Below the pieces are notes generated by a model. The model worked only from the letters and a program-made list of their open reading frames with translations. It was not told where the DNA came from and did not search any database. The translations under genes were made by a program, and so were the position numbers. Of a DNA stretch of 64,000 nucleotides, positions 6,335 through 21,052 are shown piece by piece. Position 1 is the first letter of the stretch, and every line of letters begins with the position of its first letter. Origin of the DNA: Nannocystales bacterium (GTDB lineage: Bacteria; Myxococcota_A; Polyangia; Nannocystales; Nannocystaceae); contig JBOEGF010000022.1 in NCBI GenBank assembly GCA_050633305.1, forward strand, positions 32,001 to 96,000. Direction: 5' to 3'.

Positions 6335-6409
6335 GGTTGCTCGGCTTCTTACACCGAGTGGTGCCGCAGGTCACCGTGCGGCGGATGTCCCACCGACTAC
6401 ACTCTGTGC

Positions 6410-7117
6410 GTGCGTAGGTGGCTGTTGGCGGGGTTCTTCGGGCTGGCGGGCTGTTTCGTACAGGTTGAGCCGCCACCCCGTACGGCCGGCGAGGACACCG
6501 ACGACAACGACGCGTGTGCTTCGGTTGCGTGTTCCGTGGACGGCTACTGCGACGAGGGGGAGTGTTTCTGCAACCCCTACTTCGGAGGCAACGCCTACGC
6601 GTTGCATGGATGCCAGCCAAGCCAAGCGTCAGCCGATGCCTGCGAAACCACGTGTGGACTCAACGCCTACTGTGACGACGGCGCCGGGTGTGTCTGCGCG
6701 GACGGCTTCGTGGCGGTGTGCGGAACCGGGGACTGCATGCCGATCGAGTTGGTATGCGACGGTGTCGAAGACTGCATCAACGAGCGCGATGAAGACCCGG
6801 AGGTGTGCGAGGTCGCTGAAGTTCAGCAGTGGACGCTGATCGACGGGTGTGACGACGGTGTCGACGTGTCGTGGAGGTTGTGGGCACGCGATCGTGGGTG
6901 GGTGTGGCCCTCGCTCGAGGAGGTGTTCTCGAGTGAGGGGCTCGATGTGGTCTCGCGCACTACGATCGAGTGTGTCCGTGGTGAAACGATCTGTCTGGGC
7001 GCTCAGGCCGGTGATGTGGAGTGGGGTATCGGCGCGTTCGGCAACGGAACGTGTGAGGACTGTTGCAAGCCGTGCCTGCCGGGCGTGATCGAGTTCGGAA
7101 CCGTCGCTTGTCCCTGA
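6410..7117 (+). CDS. Cys-rich lipoprotein with EGF-like repeats and an LDL-receptor class A-like module
   Basis: GTG 6410 MRRWLLAGFFGLAGC lipobox; two EGF-like Cys arrays; CGTGDCMPIELVCDGVEDCINERDE resembles the LDLa core. Confidence 0.75.
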   Translation: MRRWLLAGFFGLAGCFVQVEPPPRTAGEDTDDNDACASVACSVDGYCDEGECFCNPYFGGNAYALHGCQPSQASADACETTCGLNAYCDDGAGCVCADGFVAVCGTGDCMPIELVCDGVEDCINERDEDPEVCEVAEVQQWTLIDGCDDGVDVSWRLWARDRGWVWPSLEEVFSSEGLDVVSRTTIECVRGETICLGAQAGDVEWGIGAFGNGTCEDCCKPCLPGVIEFGTVACP

Positions 7118-7333
7118 CAGCGCCTCCCATGTCCCCACCTGAAACACCCTCGATTCCGACCAAGGGGATTCCCAGAGCTGCGCGCGCCCACAAACTCCTT
7201 CATCGTCCCGGCGTGTGGTCACTCGCGATCGGGACCTCGTTTCGCGTCCGCCATTTGGTGCCCGGCGGTGGACGGGGTGGGGGCCCGGTGGCATAGTCCC
7301 GCGGCGCCGCCAACCGGTGGCCTGTGTGTCGAA

Positions 7334-8281: not shown

Positions 8282-9991
8282 GTGTCGCAGATCCTCATCA
8301 TCGACGACGAAGACAAGTACTTCGAGCTGTGCCAACGGTTCATCGAAGGGCACGACTTCCTGCCGCCCGCTCGCAACTTCCGCGAGGCCGAAGCGACCCT
8401 CGAGGCGCATCGCGGCAAGGTCGACTTGGTGCTGCTCGACGTGCACTTCGACATCCCGGACGAGGACCTGCTCCCGTACGACAAGACGGAGCTGCTCGCT
8501 GGCAAGGACCGCAAGCGAGCGATCGAGCGGCTGCGCCGAGGGCAGGGGCTACACATTCTCGACCAGCTGCGGCGCGTGGTCCCGGACCTGCCGGTCATCG
8601 TGATGACCGCGCGGGACGACCTCCCGATCGAGGCGGACTCGGAGCGCCTCCAAGCCGAGGATTACACGTACCTTCTCGATGACGAGTATCTCGACGCTCG
8701 CTCGCTGCGGCTGCAGATCGAGAACATCCTCGCCCAGCGATCCGGTCCCTCAGGGGACGAGGAGGATGAGCCCTTCTACTGGGGCGAGACTTCCCGGATG
8801 CAGGGGCTGCGTCGGCGATTGTCGATTCTCGCCCGCGGTCAGTTGCCGATCATCCTGCTGGGGTCCACCGGGACAGGCAAGAGCCTCGTCGCGCGGGAGT
8901 TCATTCATGCCCGCTCGCATCGAGAGGGACCGTTCGTCGCGGTCGACCTCTCGACCGTGCCGCACGACCTGATGGGCGCGCATCTGTTTGGCGTGGTCAA
9001 GGGCGCGTACACGGGGGCGACAGCGTCTCGTGAAGGCGTGCTCCAACACGCGCACGGCGGGACCCTGTTTCTCGACGAGATCGGCAACCTGAGCTTGGAG
9101 CTGCAGAAGGCGCTGCTCCAGGTCCTGCAAGAGGGCCGCTATCGCCCGGTCGGCTCGGTGGACGAGCGGGTCGCGGACGTGAAGTTGGTGGTGGCGACCA
9201 ACGAAAACCTGGTCGAAATGGTTCGCCAGGGGAAGTTTCGCGAGGACCTCTACATGCGGCTCAACCCGGCGACCGCGATGCGCCTGCCGAGCCTGACCGA
9301 GCGCAAGGATGACTTCTCGGTCCTGCTGGAGGTGTTCGTCGCTCGAGTTGCGCAGGAGGCTTACAACGCGGACTTGTTGCGGCAGTACGCCGCTCAGCGG
9401 GGGATGGCTGTGCCCGAGACCGAAGCCGTGCCCGTGTCGGTGAGCCGGAAGGTCCCGTCCAAAGCGGACAGTCGTCGGATTCATTTCGTGTTCCACCCCA
9501 GCAGCTACAAGCAGCTGCGGGACTTCGCGTGGCCGGGGAACTTCCGGCAGTTTGAGATGTTCCTCTCCAACCTCATCACGCTGTCGTTGGTCGAGCTTGT
9601 CGACCAAGTGGATGTGGTCGAGCCCAGCAACCCGGCCGAGGCAAGCCGGCCCGACGTCATCCCGATTCTGCCTCGCATCGTGCGTGAGCTGATGCGGCCG
9701 ATGGACATCTCTCGGGTCGAGCCCGAGAACGATGCCGCACCGGTGCGCGTCCTGGACGATGGAGGACATCGGCTGGGCGTGACGCTGCAGGCGGGGGACT
9801 CGCTCAACGCCGTCTCGTGCGCCGTGGAGCGGCAGTATCTGGAGCTGTTGTTCGAGAAATACGAGGGGGACCTCGCGCGTATGGCAGGGGTGCTGCTCTC
9901 GGACCCCACGTCCGGACGCAAGGTCCAACTGCGTATGAACCAACTCGGCATCAAGCTTCGGTCGCTCAAACAGCGGCGGCGCAGCCGATGA
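8282..9991 (+). CDS. Sigma54-dependent response regulator (REC-AAA+-HTH, NtrC-like, atypical receiver)
   Basis: ILIIDDE and LVLLDV; Walker A GSTGTGKS; GAYTGA loop; GTLFLDEIG; FREDLYMRL; WPGNFRQ; degenerate Fis-like C-terminus. Confidence 0.92.
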   Translation: MSQILIIDDEDKYFELCQRFIEGHDFLPPARNFREAEATLEAHRGKVDLVLLDVHFDIPDEDLLPYDKTELLAGKDRKRAIERLRRGQGLHILDQLRRVVPDLPVIVMTARDDLPIEADSERLQAEDYTYLLDDEYLDARSLRLQIENILAQRSGPSGDEEDEPFYWGETSRMQGLRRRLSILARGQLPIILLGSTGTGKSLVAREFIHARSHREGPFVAVDLSTVPHDLMGAHLFGVVKGAYTGATASREGVLQHAHGGTLFLDEIGNLSLELQKALLQVLQEGRYRPVGSVDERVADVKLVVATNENLVEMVRQGKFREDLYMRLNPATAMRLPSLTERKDDFSVLLEVFVARVAQEAYNADLLRQYAAQRGMAVPETEAVPVSVSRKVPSKADSRRIHFVFHPSSYKQLRDFAWPGNFRQFEMFLSNLITLSLVELVDQVDVVEPSNPAEASRPDVIPILPRIVRELMRPMDISRVEPENDAAPVRVLDDGGHRLGVTLQAGDSLNAVSCAVERQYLELLFEKYEGDLARMAGVLLSDPTSGRKVQLRMNQLGIKLRSLKQRRRSR

Positions 9992-12960
9992 AACGCCGGT
10001 GGCTGCTGGCGCTGGGCCTTGGATGGTTCGTGTGGGCGCCCCGAGCGGATGCGGCTCCGCCCCCGGGCCCGGATTCGGCCGTGCTTCCGTCGCTCGACGG
10101 CGATCTTCCGCCGCCTCCAACCGACGAGCCTGGGGCGGAGACGGGCCTCGACGAACCCCCCGAACCCACGGAGGAAGAAAAACTCGCCGCCCGCATGAAG
10201 GAGTTTGACGACCATGTCGGCCGAGGGCAGAGCGCCGTGGCCAAGGAGCGATACGACGAGGCGATCCGGGAGTACAGCGCGGCACTTCGGATCCTCCCGG
10301 GCGACGCGTCCGCGCTGCTGGGCAAGGCGAAAGCGCATCGTGGTCGAACGGCTGAGGGCCGATGTCCCAGGCTCGCGATCCGCAACATCCTCGATATCGA
10401 ACGCAACGACCCCAAGGGCATCTGGCTCGAACAGCGCTCGGTGTTGATCGACTGGATGAGCGATTGCGGGGCCCGATACGCAACGCGGCAGCTTCGGCTC
10501 GCGCGCCAACTCGCAGGAGAGGAACCCGGTGCGAGTGGGCGTGATGACGACATCCGGCTCACGTTGGCCAAGCTCGAGTTCGCGTACGGCTCCGATCGAG
10601 GGACGCCAGAGGAACTCTCCGAGCGACGCAAAGCTGGGTTGGCAGTTCTGAGTCTGTACGTGACGGAGTGCGAAGAACAGGAGCGCAAGCCGACGGCCGA
10701 GGCGGTGTGCTTGATGGCGCAGTGGTACCGCGAAGAGGATGACCTGACGCGCTCCGCGGAGCTGTATGCGGAGCTCGATCGCCGCTACTCGGGGGCCGAA
10801 TGTGCGAAGGACGCCGGGAAAATCCTGGAAGAGATCGAATTTGAGTCCGAGCTCCGCAAGCTCGACGAGACGCAAGGATTCAGGCCATCGGCGGCCGCGG
10901 AAGCCTCCTACAACGCCGGCGTGCTCGCCTTGCGAAAGGGCAACTACGAGACCGCAGAGCACCGGCTTAGTGAGGCCATCGAGGAGAGCCCGTGGTTCCC
11001 CAGTGCCTACTACTCCCGCGGGGTGGCGCGGGCCCGGTTGGACAAGCTCATGCCGGCGGTCGATGACATCAACCGCTCGATCCGGATGGACCGGTCCGAC
11101 TACCACGCCCACATGACGTTGGGGCTGATCTACAAGAAGGAGTTCGCGGGTGCCGAGGACGACGAGGCGATCAAGCACCTCTCTTCTGCGTTGCGCTTGC
11201 GGCCCGACCTCACCCGTCTGCATCTGTTGCTGGGCGAACTCTACGCTCGCACCGACCGCGAGAAGGCGCGGGAGCACTACCAGCGCTTCATTCAGCTGAC
11301 CGAACTCGAGGATCCGGAGGCTCGCAAGGCTCGCAAGGCTCTGGAGGACCTCGAGCGGGAGATTCGCAAAGAAGACCCGCTTCCTATGCCACCCCCGGCC
11401 GAGGAGAGTCTTCGCTTTCTCGATCCTGGTGTGCAGCGGGTCATCAACGAAGCGTATCTGCGCGGCACCGAGCATCAAGACTGGCAGATGGCGGAGAAGA
11501 TCCTCGCGCAGGCGCGCGAGAGCTTTCCAAATCAGCCGGTCATCCTCAACGAGTTGGCGCGGGTGGTCTATCACCAGGAACGCTATGGGGACGCGCGTGC
11601 CTACTGGGAGCAGAGCCTGCAGGAACTCGAGAACCAGGTCGAGGTTCACGAGCGCCTCGGTCTGCTGCTGCGCGAGGACTTGGCCGACGAGGCCATCCCG
11701 CATCTTCGGCGGGCTGCCGACCTCGGCTCCCTGACGGCTCGCTTCGCACTGGCGGAGCTGCTCTGGGAGCAGACCAAGCCCCTCGAGGCGCGCGAGCAGA
11801 TCGAGCGCTACCTGGCGGAAGGGAGCGACTACGACCTCTACTGGGATCGAGCCCAGGACCTCCACAACGAAATCGAGAGCCGGTTCTTCCAGGCCTACCT
11901 GGGGTTGGCCTTGTTGCTGACGCTGATGATCGCCTTCCCGGCCTGGCGGGTGTATCGGCACTACCGCGGGGCGTCCTTGGAGCAGCTTCTCGACCGGGCG
12001 CCGAAGAGCTATCCCGAGGTCGCGCGGGTGCTGTCGTTGATCCGGCACGAGATTCTCAAGCACAACACCGCGTTCCTCGCGGATGTCGCGAGGGCGCTGG
12101 AGTACTCGTCTCCCGATGCCGATGTGCGGGCCGAAGTCCTGGGCCGTCGTCTGTTTGGTGAGGCGCTGGCGCGACGGGGTCGCTCCAAGCGCGGACGCCC
12201 CCTCGAGGGCATCTACGGTCGGTTTCACGGGTACCTGGATGAGTTGGACCAGGTGGGCCGCGCTCACCAGGTCACGCTCAACCTCCATCGCAAGGACCCA
12301 ACGTTTCGCCCGATGATCGCCGCGTTTGACGACCTGGCACATTGGGGGACCGCGCTGAGCCGCACGCCGATGCTCTCCGCGGCGAAGCGGGCCGAGCTCG
12401 CCAAGACGCTCGGCCGCTGCGGACATGTCCTGGGCCGCAAGGCGTTCGAACGCCTCAGTGGGCTCATCCAGCAGCTGTGTGTCACCACCGTCGACCCTTC
12501 GTTGGTCGAGACCTGCTACGCGCAGGTCAAGGGCGAGAAGCAGTTCGCCGGGCTCGAGTTGGGACCGGTCCTCGTGGAGGGCGAGGCAGCACCGGTTCGC
12601 ATCTTCCGGACCGACCTCGACGATATCCTCGCCAACGTGATGCGCAACTCGTTGCGCTCGAGCGTGCAGTACGCCGAGCCCCCCGTCGGCCTCGGTGTGA
12701 CGCTGCAGATCGAGATCGATGAGATCACCGGGTTGGGGTCGCTGGCGATCCGCATCAAGGACCGCAGTCCCGAGCCGCTCACCAATGAGATGCTTCGGGG
12801 GAGGTACGTGGAGCGCGGAATGGGGATCACGGTCGACCTGCTCTCGCGTTATGATGGCGCCATCGGAGTCGAGACCGAACCGGGGTGGAGCAAGGCCGTC
12901 GTGCTGCGGTTCTTCACCGTCGAGCAGGATGCGATTCCGTTGCCTGAGGCCGCTCAATGA
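9988..12960 (+). CDS. Signal peptide + TPR array + TM + divergent histidine-kinase (DHp/HATPase-like) protein
   Basis: MKRRWLLALGLGWFVWAPRADA; many TPRs; TM LGLALLLTLMIAFPAW; IRHEILKHN (H-box), LANVMRNS (N-box), IKDRSPE (degenerate G1) and RGMGITVDLL...YDGAIGVE (G2-like). Confidence 0.8.
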   Translation: MKRRWLLALGLGWFVWAPRADAAPPPGPDSAVLPSLDGDLPPPPTDEPGAETGLDEPPEPTEEEKLAARMKEFDDHVGRGQSAVAKERYDEAIREYSAALRILPGDASALLGKAKAHRGRTAEGRCPRLAIRNILDIERNDPKGIWLEQRSVLIDWMSDCGARYATRQLRLARQLAGEEPGASGRDDDIRLTLAKLEFAYGSDRGTPEELSERRKAGLAVLSLYVTECEEQERKPTAEAVCLMAQWYREEDDLTRSAELYAELDRRYSGAECAKDAGKILEEIEFESELRKLDETQGFRPSAAAEASYNAGVLALRKGNYETAEHRLSEAIEESPWFPSAYYSRGVARARLDKLMPAVDDINRSIRMDRSDYHAHMTLGLIYKKEFAGAEDDEAIKHLSSALRLRPDLTRLHLLLGELYARTDREKAREHYQRFIQLTELEDPEARKARKALEDLEREIRKEDPLPMPPPAEESLRFLDPGVQRVINEAYLRGTEHQDWQMAEKILAQARESFPNQPVILNELARVVYHQERYGDARAYWEQSLQELENQVEVHERLGLLLREDLADEAIPHLRRAADLGSLTARFALAELLWEQTKPLEAREQIERYLAEGSDYDLYWDRAQDLHNEIESRFFQAYLGLALLLTLMIAFPAWRVYRHYRGASLEQLLDRAPKSYPEVARVLSLIRHEILKHNTAFLADVARALEYSSPDADVRAEVLGRRLFGEALARRGRSKRGRPLEGIYGRFHGYLDELDQVGRAHQVTLNLHRKDPTFRPMIAAFDDLAHWGTALSRTPMLSAAKRAELAKTLGRCGHVLGRKAFERLSGLIQQLCVTTVDPSLVETCYAQVKGEKQFAGLELGPVLVEGEAAPVRIFRTDLDDILANVMRNSLRSSVQYAEPPVGLGVTLQIEIDEITGLGSLAIRIKDRSPEPLTNEMLRGRYVERGMGITVDLLSRYDGAIGVETEPGWSKAVVLRFFTVEQDAIPLPEAAQ

Positions 12961-13424
12961 ACGCTCCGCCTGTGGACATCGTCGTCGTGGAGGACGGCGA
13001 CGAGTACATCACCAACCTCACCACGTTCGTGGCGCAGGGCATGCAGTACCGCCAGGCGAAGAGCGGTATGCAGGCATGCCACCTGATCGCGCAGCGTGCT
13101 CCGGCCCTCGTCTATCTCGACATGCGATTCGACCGCATTCCCGAGGAGGAACTGCTTGGCGACATCGCGCAGTTGACCGCTCGTTTCAACGGGGACGTTT
13201 CACGGGCACGCCGGTTCCAACAGGACAACCAGGGGTTGTTCGTGCTGCGCGCGATTCGTGACGCTGGCTTCGTCGGTGCAGTCATTCTCAGCTACGACTT
13301 CTCGGCCGAAGAGCGTCGATTCGCCGCGCTCAAGGCCCGCGATCCGGGGCTTCACTACTGTCCCGACTACGCCGATGCCAACACCATCCGCGCCACCATC
13401 CTCGAAGCCGTGGGCCGGGCCTGA
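12957..13424 (+). CDS. Stand-alone atypical receiver-domain protein
   Basis: IVVVEDG, LVYLDM and VILSYD; ATGA overlap with the kinase; lacks the conserved beta5 Lys. Confidence 0.75.
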   Translation: MNAPPVDIVVVEDGDEYITNLTTFVAQGMQYRQAKSGMQACHLIAQRAPALVYLDMRFDRIPEEELLGDIAQLTARFNGDVSRARRFQQDNQGLFVLRAIRDAGFVGAVILSYDFSAEERRFAALKARDPGLHYCPDYADANTIRATILEAVGRA

Positions 13425-14019: not shown

Positions 14020-14220
14020 ATGACGATGCTTCGTTCGACTCTGCTTGCGACGCTTGCGTTTGCTGTCGCGTCCCCGACCCTCGTTGCTTGCGCTGAGAAG
14101 CCCGGCGCGAAGAAGAAGGAAGACGACAAGGACAAGAAGGACGACAAGAAGAAGGAAGGCGATAAGAAAGACGACAAGAAGAAAGACGACAAGAAGAAAG
14201 ACGACAAGAAGCCGTCCTAA
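14020..14220 (+). CDS. Small Lys/Asp-rich lipoprotein
   Basis: MTMLRSTLLATLAFAVASPTLVAC lipobox followed by KKDDK repeats; three exact AAAGACGACAAGAAG units at 14167-14211. Confidence 0.75.
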   Translation: MTMLRSTLLATLAFAVASPTLVACAEKPGAKKKEDDKDKKDDKKKEGDKKDDKKKDDKKKDDKKPS

Positions 14221-14238: not shown

Positions 14239-15174
14239 ATGCGGCTTCCCCTTCGGCACGCGCCTCCTGGCGTCGACACTCCGCTGCGACGCTGCGCGCA
14301 CCTTGAAGCGCTCGTCGAGGGTGCGATGGGGCTTCCGCTGGGCCCGGCGGCCCGAGCGTTGTCATCGAGGCGCTCTCGCGGTCGCCACGGGAACGCCCTC
14401 CAGTGGCACCTCGGGCTCGATGCTCACGACGGGGACGCCCAGCTCGACTGGGAAGATCGTATCGAGATCAAGCTGGTGTCGGTTTGGCGCCGGGGCCGGG
14501 GTGCGGACGCTCGGGTCGGCTGTGACAAGCTCAAGGTGTGCGACGTTGGCGTGGACCCGTGGCACAAGCTCGGCAACGTCATGTGGGTGTTCGCGGACCG
14601 TGTGACCCGAACTGTTGTGGGCGCTCTGCAGACCACGCTCAGTGGGGAGCTGAGAACGCGGCTTTCGACCGCCTGGGAGCAGGACCCGCACTTCGAGCAC
14701 CCGATGCTGTTCGTCGAAGCCCGCGAACACGCCGGCAAATCGGCGCCGGCCTACTACCTTGCGGCCCGATGGTTTGAGACGGAGCGGCTGCTTCCCGATC
14801 CGATCCCGGCGATCCAACCGTTCGACTCCACCTGGTGGAGTGCCGCCCGCAACCGTCATGGCCGCGATCCCTGGCTCACTGTGGTCGATGGGTCGTGCGA
14901 CACCGTGCAGTGCCCGCGCTGTGGAGGTCCGATCTCGTTCGACTCCGAGACCCTGCGCAGAGATGGATTCGCCCCGGCCCGCCACGGAATGCCGGCGGAC
15001 GGCCCCTGTTTGGCACGGGCACACGCGGTCGTGGACGTTCACACTGTGGCCCCCTCGGAGACGTTCGATGCCCAGACGGTCTGCGCGGGCATCGAGTCCC
15101 GGCTCCCGGAGGAACAGTTGGACCGGCTCACAAACAGGGTCGCCGAACCGGCCGACCATCTCCACGGCGCGTGA
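14239..15174 (+). CDS. MutH/Sau3AI-like PD-(D/E)xK endonuclease with C-terminal Cys/His zinc-binding extension
   Basis: RGRHGNALQWHLG...LDWEDRIEIKL...HKLGNVMW...RLSTAWEQ parallels E. coli MutH, recalled from memory as KGWIGVLLEIWLG...QDFAALGVELKT...HKLKRVLW...QLREDWEE. The C-terminus has CPRC...C...H. Confidence 0.65.
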   Translation: MRLPLRHAPPGVDTPLRRCAHLEALVEGAMGLPLGPAARALSSRRSRGRHGNALQWHLGLDAHDGDAQLDWEDRIEIKLVSVWRRGRGADARVGCDKLKVCDVGVDPWHKLGNVMWVFADRVTRTVVGALQTTLSGELRTRLSTAWEQDPHFEHPMLFVEAREHAGKSAPAYYLAARWFETERLLPDPIPAIQPFDSTWWSAARNRHGRDPWLTVVDGSCDTVQCPRCGGPISFDSETLRRDGFAPARHGMPADGPCLARAHAVVDVHTVAPSETFDAQTVCAGIESRLPEEQLDRLTNRVAEPADHLHGA

Positions 15175-15235
15175 GCGTCTGAAGTCGCGGGCCGTTCGCA
15201 CTCGCGGGCCGGCGAGGCCTCACGCGGTCAACACG

Positions 15236-15274
15236 AAAAACCCGAAGTCACGGACCAGGTGACCTCGGGCTTTT
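15236..15274 (-). terminator. Intrinsic terminator, best on the minus strand, possibly bidirectional
   Basis: Minus-strand RNA CCCGAGGUCAC-CUGGUCC-GUGACUUCGGG-UUUUU: 11-bp stem with one G.U pair (an A.C mismatch on plus). The plus strand has CTTTT after the stem. Confidence 0.8.
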
Positions 15275-15758
15275 CCTGACGTGGCGCCCCGTCGGAGCAG
15301 GCCACAGCATCCAAAGCTGTATGTTCATCGCGGCAACCGCGCTGGATTGCCCACGCGGTCTGGCCCCCCAGCACCGCGCTCAAGTGCGTCCGATAGAACG
15401 GGACGACCGCTCCAGATCAGACTCAAGCTACGCGAAGAAAGCTAGACACCGTGGAAGGCTCGCGTATCGCCTTCCGTCAAATCAAGGCCCGGACTAAGGG
15501 GAAACTCGGGAAAACCCGGGAAATCTAACGAAAACCCAAACGAAGACAAGGACAAGAGAAGCTAGGGCAAGAACAGGTTCAAGTCAGGAAGAAGGGACCA
15601 AGCTAGAGATCGTTCGCAAAACTCGCAAAAAAAGCCATCGAGCAAATCAAGCGGTCAGTCCAGTCGAAGCCAAGGCTAGAACAAGGAGGAAGCTAAGAAG
15701 AAAGGGCGAAGCCAGAGGTGAAAGCCAAGAAGAGTAAGTCAGGCTCAAGCTTCACCTC
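15236..15758 (-). ncRNA. Candidate ~520-nt sigma54-dependent non-coding RNA with pyrimidine-rich repetitive body and structured 3' part
   Basis: No ORF of 60 aa or more spans it; bounded by a -24/-12 promoter and a terminator; about 50% GC with extreme strand skew (51 A vs 9 T in 15481-15600); several hairpins. Confidence 0.55.
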
Positions 15759-15765
15759 CCCCATG

Positions 15766-15782
15766 TGCACGGGCTGGGCCAA
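15766..15782 (-). promoter_or_regulatory. Sigma54 (-24/-12) promoter
   Basis: Minus strand TTGGCCCAGCCCGTGCA has exact GG-N10-GC spacing; predicted +1 near 15755. Confidence 0.6.
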
Positions 15783-15787
15783 AATGG

Positions 15788-15821
15788 CAATGTGTTGAAA
15801 TCACTTGCTTTGCATATTTTT
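15788..15821 (-). promoter_or_regulatory. IHF-like site with upstream A-tract
   Basis: Minus strand TTTCAACACATTG (15800-15788) matches WATCAANNNNTTR with one mismatch, preceded by AAAAATATGCAAAG. Confidence 0.45.
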
Positions 15822-16058
15822 CGTGTAGGGGAATTGCTGAGTTCGGACCCGCAGGTATGACAAAAAAGTCCGGGTCGGGCGGGCAACCGCCGTTGTCGCC
15901 ATGACATCGATGTCGTGCGTGACCCCGGATGACGAATCGGCACGGAGATCAGCCCGAGCCGACAGAGCGTCCTGAACGACTGGTTTCGATGCGCGGCGAT
16001 GGATCGGGCTCCACCGGACGGGCCGGGTTCGTGCTAATCCGTCGGCGCGTTCCGGTCG

Positions 16059-16895
16059 ATGAACGACGACGAACCTCCGAATCCGAAGCCTCCTCGTGCT
16101 GTCCTCAAATTTGGCGGGGAGGTTGTTGCAGATACCGCGGCGCTGGTCCGCGTCCTCGATGAAGTACGTGCGCTCATCGCCGACGGATGGAGCTTCGTCC
16201 TCGTCCACGGCGGCGGCCCACAATCCAACGACCACGCCGCCGCGCTCGGCCTCGAGGTTCAGAAGGTCGCAGGGCGACGCGTGACTGACGGTGCGACGCT
16301 CGAAGTGGCCAAACAGATTCTCGCAGGCGCCGTGAACGTAGACGTTGTCGCGACCGCAAGAGCCCGTGGTGTTCGTGCCGTGGGTCTCGCCGGAGTCAGC
16401 CTCCTCACAGCGACCCGACGTGCCGCGGAGGTGGTCGAGGGAGAACCGGTCGACTGGGGGTTCGTCGGTGAAGTGGCGGGGGTCGACACGGCACTTGTTG
16501 AACTGTTGTGGGCTGATGGACGTACCCCCGTGCTCGCTCCGCTCGCTGCGGATTCCAATGGACAGGCCTACAACATCAACGCTGACACGGTCGCATCCGC
16601 GATCGCGGCGGCTGTCCACGCGGACCACCTCTTTCTCATGACTGCAGCAGGCGGCGTGCTCGGGGACATCACAGACCCCGACACTCGAATCCCCACCCTC
16701 ACGCCCACCGAAGCTCGGGACGCGATCGCCACGGGCGTCATCGCGGGCGGGATGATTCCAAAGGTTGCCGATGCGCTCGACCAGCTCGAGCGCGGCATCG
16801 GCGTCGTGCACATCCTGGGCGCCTGTTCGTTGCGCGCGGCCGCGAATGACCCCGGGTGTGTCGGGACGGCGATCGCGTCAAAGGAACTGCGATGA
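16059..16895 (+). CDS. argB: Acetylglutamate kinase
   Basis: VLKFGG, VLVHGGGPQ, GRRVTD, GFVGEV, YNINAD and GGMIPKV. Confidence 0.92.
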   Translation: MNDDEPPNPKPPRAVLKFGGEVVADTAALVRVLDEVRALIADGWSFVLVHGGGPQSNDHAAALGLEVQKVAGRRVTDGATLEVAKQILAGAVNVDVVATARARGVRAVGLAGVSLLTATRRAAEVVEGEPVDWGFVGEVAGVDTALVELLWADGRTPVLAPLAADSNGQAYNINADTVASAIAAAVHADHLFLMTAAGGVLGDITDPDTRIPTLTPTEARDAIATGVIAGGMIPKVADALDQLERGIGVVHILGACSLRAAANDPGCVGTAIASKELR

Positions 16896-18212: not shown

Positions 18213-20288
18213 TCAGCCGGCGTGCCCGAGCGCGCGTGCGAGCGCCCAGGTCGGAAAAACCTGCCGGTACAGCTCGTAGTCCAACACCGAGGTGTTGAAG
18301 AAGACGCCGGAGGGGGTCTCCGGCGGCCACAGGCCGTCGTCGCGCTGTCGGTCCCGAAGGAAGGCAAGCCCCGTTTCGATCGCCTCGGTCTCGTGGGGCG
18401 CGATTTCCTGCAGCGTCAGCACGGCCCAGGCGGTCTGGGTGACTGTGCTGGCTTCGTTGGGCTCGAGGTCGTGGGGCGCGTCGTTGAGCAGCCCCAGGTA
18501 GCTCTCGCCCCAGCCGCCGTCGGGTCGTTGATGCTCCACGAGCCACCGGCTGGCCCGTGCAAAAGCGGGGTGTGAGGGGGGGAGCCCCGCTGCGAGCAGG
18601 CCCGAGCAGGCGAAAAACGTCCCGTAGGTGACGTTGACGCCCCAGAAACCGAGCCAGCCGCCGTCTTCGTGCTGCTGTTCGAGCAAGAAGGCGCGGCCAT
18701 CCGTCACGGCCTTGCGTACGCTGGAGCGGAGCTCGCTGGGCATGGATTCGCCCAGCTCGCGCTCTGCATACGCGAGACCGCGAACGCAGCTGCCCGTGCA
18801 CTCGGTGTACGAGTACTCCAGCATGCAGTTGCCGTAGATCTCCGCCGGGTTGTAGTGCTTGAGCACCATCGGCCCACGGCGAGGCTCGTAGGAGCCGAAC
18901 CCACCATCGTCGTTTTGGCGTTGGAGGATGAACTCGACCGCGCACAGCTTGCGGCCCAGCTGCAGCCGCCCAACCTCGTCGCTCAGCCCGGCATCTTCGA
19001 TACGCATCAGCGCTTCGAGGGCCTCGGCGGTGCAGTCGCTGACGGGCCACGGATGGTTCTCGTTCGCGAATCCCCAGCCGCCGTACGCGGGCTCGCGGAA
19101 GTGTCGGGAACCACCGCGGACGTCGGCCTGCATCTGCGCCGTCGGCAGCCAACGCGACGCGGCGTGGGCGATCGAGCGCGCCTGGTCGCTTTGGGGACCT
19201 TCGCTCAACGCTTGAAGCATGAACGAGGTGTCCCAGATGTCGGATCGGGCACCTGCGAATCGCGTCCCGAGGGTCTCGTCCTCCCAGACCCAGTACTCCA
19301 TCGCGGCCATGCCCTTGGCGAGCTCGGGGTGCTGGGGGTCCTCTGCGTGCAGCGCCAGGCAGAAGAGGAACCCGTTGACGGGGCTGAGGCACACGTAGTC
19401 CGTCGAACGAAACTCGAACAGGATGTGCTCCATCGCCTTGCTGAGGGCTCGCTTGCGAACCACGCCGGGGACGACACGGTCGACCCGTCGAAGGCCGGCG
19501 AAGATCTTCTTGAGCGCGGGCGCCGGCTCCTCGTAAAGGTCCGTCGCCGCGATCGACTCGGTGTGTTGCTCGAAGTCTTCGGCTCGGTAGCCACGCGGGT
19601 ACAGCTCCGAGCGAATGGCATCGAGCAACGGTCCACTGGGCGCCACCACCTTGGCGCCGTACAGGTACGACAAGCCGAGGTAGATCAAGCGCATGTGGCA
19701 GTACAGCCGCCGCGGGTGCATCGGCGCCGACTCGGGAAGCAGCCACAGCTCGGGCATGATCGGCTGCGCTCCGGTCCACGGGTACAGGCCCAACAAGGCG
19801 AGCCAGATCCGGCCCCACGTAGGGATCGTGTAGACGCCCCCGGCCTCCGAAATGAAGCTCCGCGCTCGGACACACATCGGGTCGTCGGCGGGGGCCCCGA
19901 GCAATCGCAGCGCGACGTACCCGAGCGTCGTGTGGAACAACCACGCCTTTCCGCGAAAGGCGCGGGGCTCATTCGGGTCGCCGGTGTGAACGACCGGGAG
20001 CATCCCCCAGCCGCCGCCGGGGAACTCTTGGACCTCGAGGCTACGGCGGATCAGTGCCCGGCGAGCCTGAGGGATCTCGTGTCCGGTGATGTGGCAGACG
20101 AAGACGTACTGACACACCAGCATCGGGTTCCAAACGACCTCGCCCGCGAAGGCGCCGTTGTCTTGCTGTCGACCGGCGAGCCCGTCCAAAGCCTTGGCGT
20201 AGGCTTGGGCGTTCGGGTCCGTGGAAAGCTCGGGGGGCGGCGTCGTTGTTGCCCCGGAGACGTTCGCGTGGCTGTGGTTTTGGCTCAT
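18213..20288 (-). CDS. 2,3-oxidosqualene cyclase-like triterpene cyclase
   Basis: PVSDCTAE active-site motif (not the SHC-type DxDD), HPRRLYCHMR, YTECT, WGVNVTYGT and several QxxDGGW repeats. Start placed at MSQNHSH, ATG 20288. Confidence 0.88.
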   Translation of the reverse strand: MSQNHSHANVSGATTTPPPELSTDPNAQAYAKALDGLAGRQQDNGAFAGEVVWNPMLVCQYVFVCHITGHEIPQARRALIRRSLEVQEFPGGGWGMLPVVHTGDPNEPRAFRGKAWLFHTTLGYVALRLLGAPADDPMCVRARSFISEAGGVYTIPTWGRIWLALLGLYPWTGAQPIMPELWLLPESAPMHPRRLYCHMRLIYLGLSYLYGAKVVAPSGPLLDAIRSELYPRGYRAEDFEQHTESIAATDLYEEPAPALKKIFAGLRRVDRVVPGVVRKRALSKAMEHILFEFRSTDYVCLSPVNGFLFCLALHAEDPQHPELAKGMAAMEYWVWEDETLGTRFAGARSDIWDTSFMLQALSEGPQSDQARSIAHAASRWLPTAQMQADVRGGSRHFREPAYGGWGFANENHPWPVSDCTAEALEALMRIEDAGLSDEVGRLQLGRKLCAVEFILQRQNDDGGFGSYEPRRGPMVLKHYNPAEIYGNCMLEYSYTECTGSCVRGLAYAERELGESMPSELRSSVRKAVTDGRAFLLEQQHEDGGWLGFWGVNVTYGTFFACSGLLAAGLPPSHPAFARASRWLVEHQRPDGGWGESYLGLLNDAPHDLEPNEASTVTQTAWAVLTLQEIAPHETEAIETGLAFLRDRQRDDGLWPPETPSGVFFNTSVLDYELYRQVFPTWALARALGHAG

Positions 20289-20377
20289 GGTCGGGTTGGC
20301 CTCAGTCCCGTCTGCGACCCGGAGCGCCCGCGGAGCAACCCCGGGGACCCCCCGGAGACCGCCCGGGGACCACCCGG

Positions 20378-21052
20378 TCAATCGCTCGGACGTAGCACGA
20401 GGAACCACTGGTGGGGAAGGAAGGTTTCCTCCGACTCGACCACGAACCCGGCTTGCGCGAGCTCCCCTTTCGCGGTTTCGACGTCGATCCGGTGCTGCGG
20501 AGCAGGCGCAATCCCCTCTGGGGGGGTCGCATCGGGGCGGAAGTCGAGAAGCACCAGCCGCCCCTCGTCCTTGAGGGCTGCGCGAACCCGTGTGAAGTAG
20601 GGCACACGGCTCCGAATGTACGCGTACGTGTTGGCCGAGAAGACCAGGTCGAGCCCATCCTGCGGCAGCATCGGGTCGTCGTAGTGGGCCAGGTGGGGCT
20701 CGATGTTGGGCGTGCCCCACTGCTCGCGCTGCTCGAGCAGGTAGTCCTCGAACTCACCGTCGACATCGACCGCGTAGACCCGCCCCTCGGGCACCAAGAG
20801 CGCGAGGCGGCGTGTGAAGTAGCCCGAGCCCGCACCAATGTCGGCGACCGTGGATGCTTTGGCGGGGGCGGGCAGGGCGTCCACCACCCGATCGGGTTGT
20901 TGCCATGCGTCGCGCTGCGGGTCCTCGAAGACCTCGATCATCGCGCGCGGGTCGTCGTAGTGCTGCGGAGGCCCGCTGTTCTTCCCCGGGCACCCCGCTG
21001 CGAAGGCGACGAGGAGCAACGGTGCCGCGATCCGGGGCAGCTTACAGGCCAT
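20378..21052 (-). CDS. Class I SAM-dependent methyltransferase, lipoprotein
   Basis: LLLVAFAAGC lipobox; RDAWQQPD, VADIGAGSGYFT, VYAVDV and FLPHQWF. Confidence 0.82.
   Translation of the reverse strand: MACKLPRIAAPLLLVAFAAGCPGKNSGPPQHYDDPRAMIEVFEDPQRDAWQQPDRVVDALPAPAKASTVADIGAGSGYFTRRLALLVPEGRVYAVDVDGEFEDYLLEQREQWGTPNIEPHLAHYDDPMLPQDGLDLVFSANTYAYIRSRVPYFTRVRAALKDEGRLVLLDFRPDATPPEGIAPAPQHRIDVETAKGELAQAGFVVESEETFLPHQWFLVLRPSD

Follow-up and report, generated by a model that had tools for sequence, protein, structure and literature searches.

A predicted sigma54-dependent RNA family with URRCUU repeats in the Nannocystaceae, a candidate protein decoy

The question raised by this locus is what occupies the 884-nt gap (15175-16058) between two genes in a 64,000-nt stretch of DNA from a Nannocystales bacterium (contig JBOEGF010000022.1, positions 32,001 to 96,000; hereafter the window), for which a preliminary description had proposed a sigma54-driven non-coding RNA encoded on the minus strand. 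The gap is located between a convergent gene for a protein of 311 amino acids and a divergent argB gene. Comparison with related genomes indicated that the locus almost certainly represents a real non-coding RNA gene family, the transcription of which is predicted from the DNA, and this family is undescribed in the sources searched. Since the predicted RNA is packed with a short motif shared with the starts of co-regulated mRNAs, it is probably a decoy for a repressor; that it titrates a protein in the manner of CrcZ or CsrB, featuring a new motif, is the reading that we favor, with some reserve.

The gap had been called the only large region of the window free of open reading frames (ORFs); it is indeed the largest, apart from the interval 6335-7333, where the gene caller had missed a listed ORF. 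The described strand skew of 51 A versus 9 T on the plus strand at 15481-15600 was reproduced exactly, and a skew of this strength occurred in only 16 out of the 91,639 non-overlapping 120-nt segments of the genome. The segment 15476-15760 has a GC content of 50%, compared to 66.6% for the whole window, and the minus strand is rich in stop codons (8, 7, and 7 in the individual frames).

The proposed GG-N10-GC promoter was recovered as TGGCCCAGCCCGTGCA (15781-15766, minus strand), with a predicted +1 position near 15755. It is preceded by two copies of the palindrome GACA-N4-TGTCA, predicted to be the binding sites of an activator, and by a predicted IHF-like site, which fits the sequence WATCAANNNNTTR, taken here to be the IHF consensus, with one mismatch. 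Paired activator sites were found in 52 out of 72 family genomes, between one and four times each, compared to a single genome for the reversed control pattern. In a DNA search of 40 relatives, the gap was matched in all six same-genus genomes and in one out of 17 other family genomes. Orthologs were sought via the flanking gene (14239-15174) as an anchor, which is present in 67 of the 72 family genomes. Among the 30 best anchor loci, activator site, promoter, and terminal hairpin were recognized by regular expressions alone in 24; regarding the other six, L032, L041 (inverted), and L027 (shifted by ~1 kb) were recognized on inspection, two have the elements elsewhere in the genome, and one lies at a contig end. 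Taking all loci fetched, the main copy was detected in 57 out of the 60 genomes examined and in 16 out of 17 genera, a share that is not unbiased, because the upstream-site pattern guided the choice of many loci added later. The 57 genomes comprise 55 that were counted plus G014 and G008 (promoter masked in G008), and the three in which no main copy was detected are G021 (none beside the anchor gene), G066 (cut off), and G081 (only the paralog fetched). Promoter, skew, and terminal hairpin, the lack of which in relatives would have counted against the proposal, were thus found to be conserved across the window's family, and the RNAs, between 216 and 524 nt in length, feature fixed ends and bodies that can hardly be aligned.

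Named records passing a test for promoter and repeats belong to Nannocystis, Enhygromyxa, or Nannocystaceae or are unclassified, and the RNA family was therefore placed in the Nannocystaceae. In the scan of named genomes, 11 of the 80 loci fetched with flanks (out of at least 119 matches listed) possess promoter and repeats. A phylum-wide promoter pattern matched 60 out of 401 genomes, which is about the background level, and upstream sites together with repeats were present in only three of the 30 loci fetched from it, all of them in family f1. Furthermore, 20 loci around orthologs of the enhancer-binding protein introduced below contained no such RNA in other families, and no member was recognized outside family f1 in the loci checked, the searches being pattern-based and incomplete. 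A locus from another family (L457 in G474, near position 1500) has a sigma54-like promoter and a U/C-rich tract with four motif copies between a subtilase gene and an RNase E/G-like gene; it carries no activator sites and is probably unrelated.

The terminal hairpin probably acts as an intrinsic terminator. As proposed, its stem is better paired on the minus strand (-28.0 kcal/mol compared to -19.7 kcal/mol on the plus strand, 15275-15235). Compensatory changes were found in 10 of its 17 pairs among 18 orthologs, and none of 500 shuffles reached the covariation score; slid controls scored far lower, and kinship of the sequences may inflate the result. The hairpin also moves together with the RNA in the inverted unit L041. 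A simple terminator scan detected it at the chance rate (two found, 1.8 expected), and support for a terminator is therefore drawn from covariation. The whole strand of 533 nt folds no better than shuffled sequences (z -1.74), and a 5' hairpin (15758-15715), originally included in the transcription unit, had to be given up as a conserved element, being confined to this genome and not kept in six same-genus copies. A scan of the window for tRNA and tmRNA genes with ARAGORN yielded nothing. A match to a known Rfam family, named beforehand as speaking against the proposal, was not obtained in the window with the covariance models of release 15 at the gathering score; down to E 10 in the window, only chance-level matches to eukaryotic or archaeal models appeared, and down to E 1 in eight homologous loci likewise only chance-level matches.

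The main feature of the RNA, overlooked in the preliminary description, is its repeat array. URRCUU occurs in 12 copies in the window's RNA compared to 1.4 expected, a number reached by none of 200 shuffles. In 24 orthologs chosen without regard to the motif, 158 copies were counted versus 22.8 expected from dinucleotide shuffles, with 2-15 copies per ortholog, and 21 of the 24 were singly above nearly all shuffles. The motif is part of an extended word, CYURRCUU, for which a spacing of 5 nt is favored (122 versus 47 expected, in a motif-filtered set). A k-mer table was computed from 76 bodies, 60 of which were pre-filtered for at least four repeats, and the spacing set shares this bias; the enrichment was therefore taken from the 24 unfiltered orthologs. 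Since the bodies of different genera align little better than shuffles, the count and order of the words vary, the word itself being kept, and multiple copies of a short motif in variable number and order are a hallmark of protein-sequestering RNAs. The A content of the 24 copies is 11-18%, i.e., they contain no A-rich (ARN) repeats.

Furthermore, a paralogous RNA of ~290-330 nt was identified in genome G000 (L048; contig C18, 361795-362281, minus strand), convergent with a NUDIX gene. Its paired activator sites and its words are the same as those of the window's RNA; it has a sigma54 promoter as well as a terminator of its own and, as the densest repeat cluster, ranks first in a genome-wide motif-density scan. 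Paralogs adjacent to NUDIX genes were detected in genera g1, g9, g10, g13, and g15. All eight of those in g10 (L084-L091) contain GUUGG/GUAGG repeats instead of the C-flanked words (hereafter G-type and C-type, respectively), arranged as (GGUUG)n/(GGUAG)n arrays with 4-10 GGA each. Some of these G-type paralogs could form G-quadruplexes. An antisense match to mRNAs of Lys/Ala-rich proteins, which also emerged from the motif-density scan, was rejected, as it follows from codon composition and misfits the G-type copies.

To which mRNAs such words might relate was deduced from the promoters. A weight matrix of the activator sites was applied to the 186 intergenic sigma54 sites of G000, a score of at least 12 being regarded as strong. 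Fourteen sites were strong (18 at score 10), two of them belonging to the RNAs, and most of the others precede genes with lipoprotein-type signal peptides, the start codon lying 27-28 nt after the -24 GG, which corresponds to a leader of 2-3 nt. Within the first 60 nt, URRCUU was present at four of the 12 strong non-RNA sites compared to four out of 172 others (p 6.5e-4); the four G000 cases, which represent two pairs of paralogs, cover the start codon (RUG-GCU-U) in the same sense as the RNA. In other family genomes, the upstream site was found at 16 out of 21 leaderless RUG-GCU-U starts with a sigma54 promoter versus one out of 30 RUG-GC(A/C/G) starts (30 controls fetched of 73 matched, none from g10). 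The largest putative target family consists of lipoproteins with an SPM domain (PF26745; Atlas score 0.97), which stands for self-processing module in the available text of PMC7078468. A search for their homologs in 25 genomes yielded 65 loci, 25 of them with a recognized sigma54 promoter and start. In g10, eight of nine starts are G-type and none is C-type, the words being located in codons as well as in untranslated leaders, whereas outside g10 nine out of 16 are C-type and none is G-type. One lipoprotein copy swaps Ala for Thr but retains URRCUU, and one copy with a leader has the word over the Shine-Dalgarno (SD) sequence. In total, the same-sense motif at starts was seen in g1, g7, g13, and g15, and as G-type in g10. 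In the near-leaderless SPM lipoproteins L317, L294, and L289 and their homologs, the domain begins with Thr-Pro; the described module cleaves Asp-Pro.

The repeat array and the paralogs, together with the presence of the motif in the same sense where mRNAs begin, thus support the idea of a sponge that was raised in the preliminary description, and the following course of events is conceivable. A signal would activate an enhancer-binding protein (probably the one encoded at 8282-9991), which would bind the paired GACA-N4-TGTCA sites and drive the RNA, its paralog, and about 12 other sigma54 promoters, mostly those of near-leaderless lipoprotein genes. An RNA-binding protein reading (C/U)URRCUU-type words would cover the start codons of some target mRNAs and block their translation, and the many word copies in the RNA would titrate this repressor away, resulting in a feed-forward loop like CbrB-CrcZ-Hfq or CsrB-CsrA. 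We infer here that the RNA is transcribed, which protein activates it, that a repressor exists and what it is, and in which direction the effect goes. A protein decoy as in the case of CrcZ is preferred because such decoys are marked by mimicry in the same sense, by repeats that vary in number, and by paralogs sharing one promoter. The more specific proposal, that sigma54-driven decoys titrate a kind of repressor not known to be sponged in bacteria (e.g., a glycine-rich single-RRM protein) off leaderless lipoprotein starts, with the word lying in the first signal-peptide codons and co-changing in one genus, is a possibility toward which we are inclined to be slightly skeptical.

Several observations weigh against the decoy model and its targets. 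Eight of the 12 strong-site promoters of G000 lack the motif, which was also found in only five of 28 loci outside G000 identified by the upstream-site pattern, and no genome-wide motif enrichment was detected in 3,091 predicted leaders. The evidence from mRNA starts amounts to about four gene families plus kin genomes, and one of the 16 starts with an upstream site, L302 (a CRP-family gene), probably has a CRP-type site instead. Many of the control rows are chance hits, because the control pattern matched about as often as the reversed control. GCU is a generally favored second codon of low structure, and cassettes of promoter and signal peptide may share ancestry. In genera g2, g4, and g17, which possess the RNA, none of six SPM-lipoprotein starts carries the motif. 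The g10 ortholog of the window's RNA stays C-type and is richer in UUGG, and the co-switch of paralog and targets in this genus is one evolutionary event; since this single event concerns the paralog, the link to targets is indirect for the window's copy. Finally, the leaders of RRM genes, discussed below as encoding candidate ligands, carry no motif.

Other modes of action can be set against the protein decoy. The transcript could act by base pairing like Pxr or MXnc1, contacting purine-rich ribosome-binding regions of many mRNAs through its single-stranded U/C-rich body or through a processed 3' fragment that contains the conserved word GGUCGGUGC, a G-run, and the UGGUC loop. Myxobacterial small RNAs that do not depend on Hfq pair near SD sequences, according to the available text of 10.1101/2025.09.11.675593, most genera retain the 3' words, and wobble pairing is possible between C-type YYRRYY words and the G-type starts of g10. 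However, words complementary to the SD sequence are depleted (CCUCC to 0.31x and CUCCU to 0.60x of expectation), the body has no single conserved seed, and, for regulon starts, duplex energies did not differ from those of controls in G000 or of shuffles in g10 (z -1.0 to +2.2), a coarse measure that ignores short seeds and accessibility. No duplex-energy signal was obtained between C-type and G-type RNAs either, and we consider base pairing unlikely. A related proposal, which is quite improbable in our opinion, assumes that the long RNA titrates a small RNA, one seed of which, such as AAGUUAGG, would pair through G-U wobble with all CYURRCUU variants and with AUG-GCU-U starts. The degeneracy of the motif (R at two places, Y at one) is exactly what one wobble seed permits, and same-sense mimicry is as compatible with an RNA as with a protein ligand; yet no candidate gene emerged when the intergenic regions of G000 were scanned for seeds with a terminator behind them, the sole AAGUUA(A/G)G match with a terminator lies in a stretch resembling 5S rRNA (by eye) and was taken as coincidence, and the G-type repeats would need another seed.

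A sponge of the CsrB/RsmY kind for the family's own CsrA would require a specificity shifted from ANGGA to UUGG. CsrA was found in 62 out of 72 family genomes, UGGCUU is the commonest word, several g10 genomes have two or three csrA copies, and GGA is present in the G-type paralogs, as stated above. Nevertheless, GGA is depleted in C-type RNAs (91 versus 133 expected, 0.69x, in the 24 orthologs), the words UAGCUU and UGACUU lack GG, csrA resides in a flagellar-type cluster resembling flhG-fliA-csrA-fliW (genes recognized by eye), and no CsrA was detected in three RNA-bearing genomes (G018, G016, and G054, 90-93% complete), leaving this reading a very small chance. It is similarly hard to believe that a short hydrophobic peptide is translated from the transcript or that the RNA is made as a by-product without function. 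The window's copy does contain GGAGGUG followed by a UUG-start ORF for 33 hydrophobic amino acids, partly common to G002, but no ORF is common to 60 elements, most of which have no AUG near the 5' end, and 16 genera as well as the paralogs have retained the promoter, the pair of activator sites, and the covarying hairpin. Concerning the ligand of the protein decoy, canonical CsrA and Hfq are unlikely; Hfq (PF17209) was not found in G000, which is 92% complete, while control genomes gave matches. A glycine-rich protein with a single RRM is our first, though rather doubtful, guess from footprint and ubiquity, RRM proteins occurring in 70 out of 72 family genomes (1-8 each). Four RRM proteins and one cold-shock protein are present in G000.

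Among known systems, CsrB/CsrC and RsmX/Y/Z are RNAs with multiple motif copies, paralogs under one regulator, variable length, and a conserved terminator, features to which the present family is similar; it differs by having no hairpins with GGA loops, by the depletion of GGA, by the sigma54 promoter, and by its presence where CsrA was not found. With CrcZ/CrcY of Pseudomonas (CbrAB, sigma54, Hfq/Crc), it shares a sigma54 promoter with upstream activator sites and a length of a few hundred nucleotides. The repeated short motifs of CrcZ resemble the regions where mRNAs start and sequester a repressor of translation, as described in the available part of PMC4063720. In contrast to the A-rich, Hfq-binding CrcZ, the RNA described here is U/C-rich, with URRCUU repeats, and occurs in a genome in which Hfq was not found. 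The Pxr RNA of Myxococcus and relatives is likewise myxobacterial, has a sigma54 promoter and a gene for an enhancer-binding protein nearby, and occurs without Hfq (PMC5568312, available sections). It is 108 nt long with three stem-loops, found in the Cystobacterineae, encoded downstream of nla19, and thought to pair with mRNAs, as far as described in the accessible text of PMC5568312 and PMC11928866, whereas the present RNAs measure 216-524 nt and gave no match up to E 10 to Rfam, which has a Pxr model. FopS and the RRM protein RbpB of Bacteroides offer another parallel, namely, a paralogous small-RNA family in a bacterium without Hfq, connected with the start regions of envelope-protein mRNAs; the FopS RNAs are base-pairing repressors of ~65-70 nt with one seed, linked to RbpB (PMC11697453, available sections). 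The present RNAs differ in being long repeat arrays of the same sense as their putative targets, the RRM link being only a candidate. MXnc1 of Myxococcus xanthus is also an intergenic myxobacterial RNA tied to the start regions of several mRNAs; it acts by pairing and is set apart by its description in the available text of 10.1101/2025.09.11.675593, not by sequence. No description of the present RNA was found in the full-text literature searched, which mostly excludes subscription papers such as the Mol Omics 2020 survey of M. xanthus non-coding RNAs (cited in the available text of PMC8538405), and the accessible part of the MyxoPortal article (PMC11219305) names no such RNA.

What the family could add is best judged from its setting. 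To our knowledge, only a few proteins, among them CsrA, Hfq/Crc, and RapZ, are known to be sequestered by sponge RNAs, and the family points to a further pair of ligand and motif in bacteria without Hfq. With its 12 motif copies and two paralogs, it can be used directly as bait; an activator site and a regulon are predicted for it, and one genus provides a natural switch of the motif. If the model is true, the first codons of leaderless mRNAs would encode translational control, and the study of riboregulation would be opened in the Nannocystaceae, a family with cultured species that has received little attention. The features of the locus are summarized in Table 1.

Table 1. Features of the locus within the window.
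Feature	Position	Strand	Basis or remark
Predicted non-coding RNA, ~524 nt	15232..15755	minus	Ends predicted from promoter spacing and terminal hairpin; no conserved ORF
U/C-rich body with 11 of the RNA's 12 URRCUU motifs (UGGCUU, UAGCUU, UGACUU)	15425..15742	minus	
Sigma54 -24/-12 promoter, TGGCCCAGCCCGTGCA	15766..15781	minus	GG and TGC invariant in 24 orthologs
IHF-like site, just 5' of promoter	15788..15800	minus	TCAA-N4-TTG block conserved in promoter alignment; predicted site
Upstream activator site 2, ~44 nt from site 1	15857..15872	minus	Invariant GAC..GTCAT columns
Upstream activator site 1, palindrome GACA-N4-TGTCA	15901..15916	minus	Invariant columns (GAC..TGTC) in 24 orthologous promoters
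GC-rich hairpin	15453..15478	minus	Alignment of same-genus copies: kept in close relatives only
Hairpin with GGUGCUG and G-run	15354..15379	minus	In other genera, both words just before terminal hairpin
Terminal hairpin, 17 bp, conserved UGGUC loop, probable intrinsic terminator	15235..15275	minus	Covariation
Sigma54 enhancer-binding protein (receiver, AAA+ with GAYTGA), candidate activator	8282..9991	plus	Pfam; predicted role
TPR-rich membrane protein and lone receiver-like protein, rest of relay	9988..13424	plus	Pfam: TPRs only; degenerate kinase-like C-terminus by eye
Convergent flanking gene, 311 amino acids, synteny anchor	14239..15174	plus	MutH/Sau3AI-like, lead only
Divergent argB (acetylglutamate kinase)	16059..16895	plus	TIGR00761 above cut-off

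The suggestion that the RNA is the output of a nearby sigma54 relay found partial support, in the form of synteny: enhancer-binding protein and anchor gene lie at most 12 kb apart on the same contig in 50 out of 64 genomes, and on separate contigs in the remaining 14. The protein encoded at 8282-9991, ~6 kb away from the RNA, probably drives it, judging from this arrangement; it has one match per genome in all 42 high-quality family genomes, and G000 holds many other enhancer-binding proteins. The relay cluster (8282-13424) is kept in many Myxococcota families, with no named function found, and the enhancer-binding protein was detected at E 1e-75 in 50 out of 250 other genomes sampled. In genome G236 (L123, near 10669, minus strand), a sigma54 promoter and repeated sites resembling GGACA-N4-TGTCC are located directly after the ortholog of this protein and before an operon resembling argC/argB, a layout that may point to a more ancient connection of the relay with arginine genes. 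In many other genera, argC (recognized by eye) takes the place of argB.

The protein of the convergent flanking gene yielded no match in Pfam, NCBIfam, or PDB; an Atlas feature score of 0.81 to MutH clusters serves as a lead only, and its C-terminal part is Cys-rich. Between a thioesterase gene and this MutH-like gene, a Lys/Glu-rich stretch (14060-14200, plus strand) with a small ORF displays the strongest A/T skew of the window. In G000, truncated CsrA-like ORFs comprising only the N-terminal half were observed on contigs that carry many genes for transposases and integrases (C66:3675-3932, C74:130-384, and C17:168272). The CRP-family regulator genes L302, L329, L331, and L332 are near-leaderless under sigma54, with a palindromic site resembling TCACA-N4-TGTGA upstream, a layout presumably similar to MrpC-like autoregulation. 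Lastly, a gene of the squalene-hopene/oxidosqualene cyclase family is located at 18216-20510 on the minus strand of the window.
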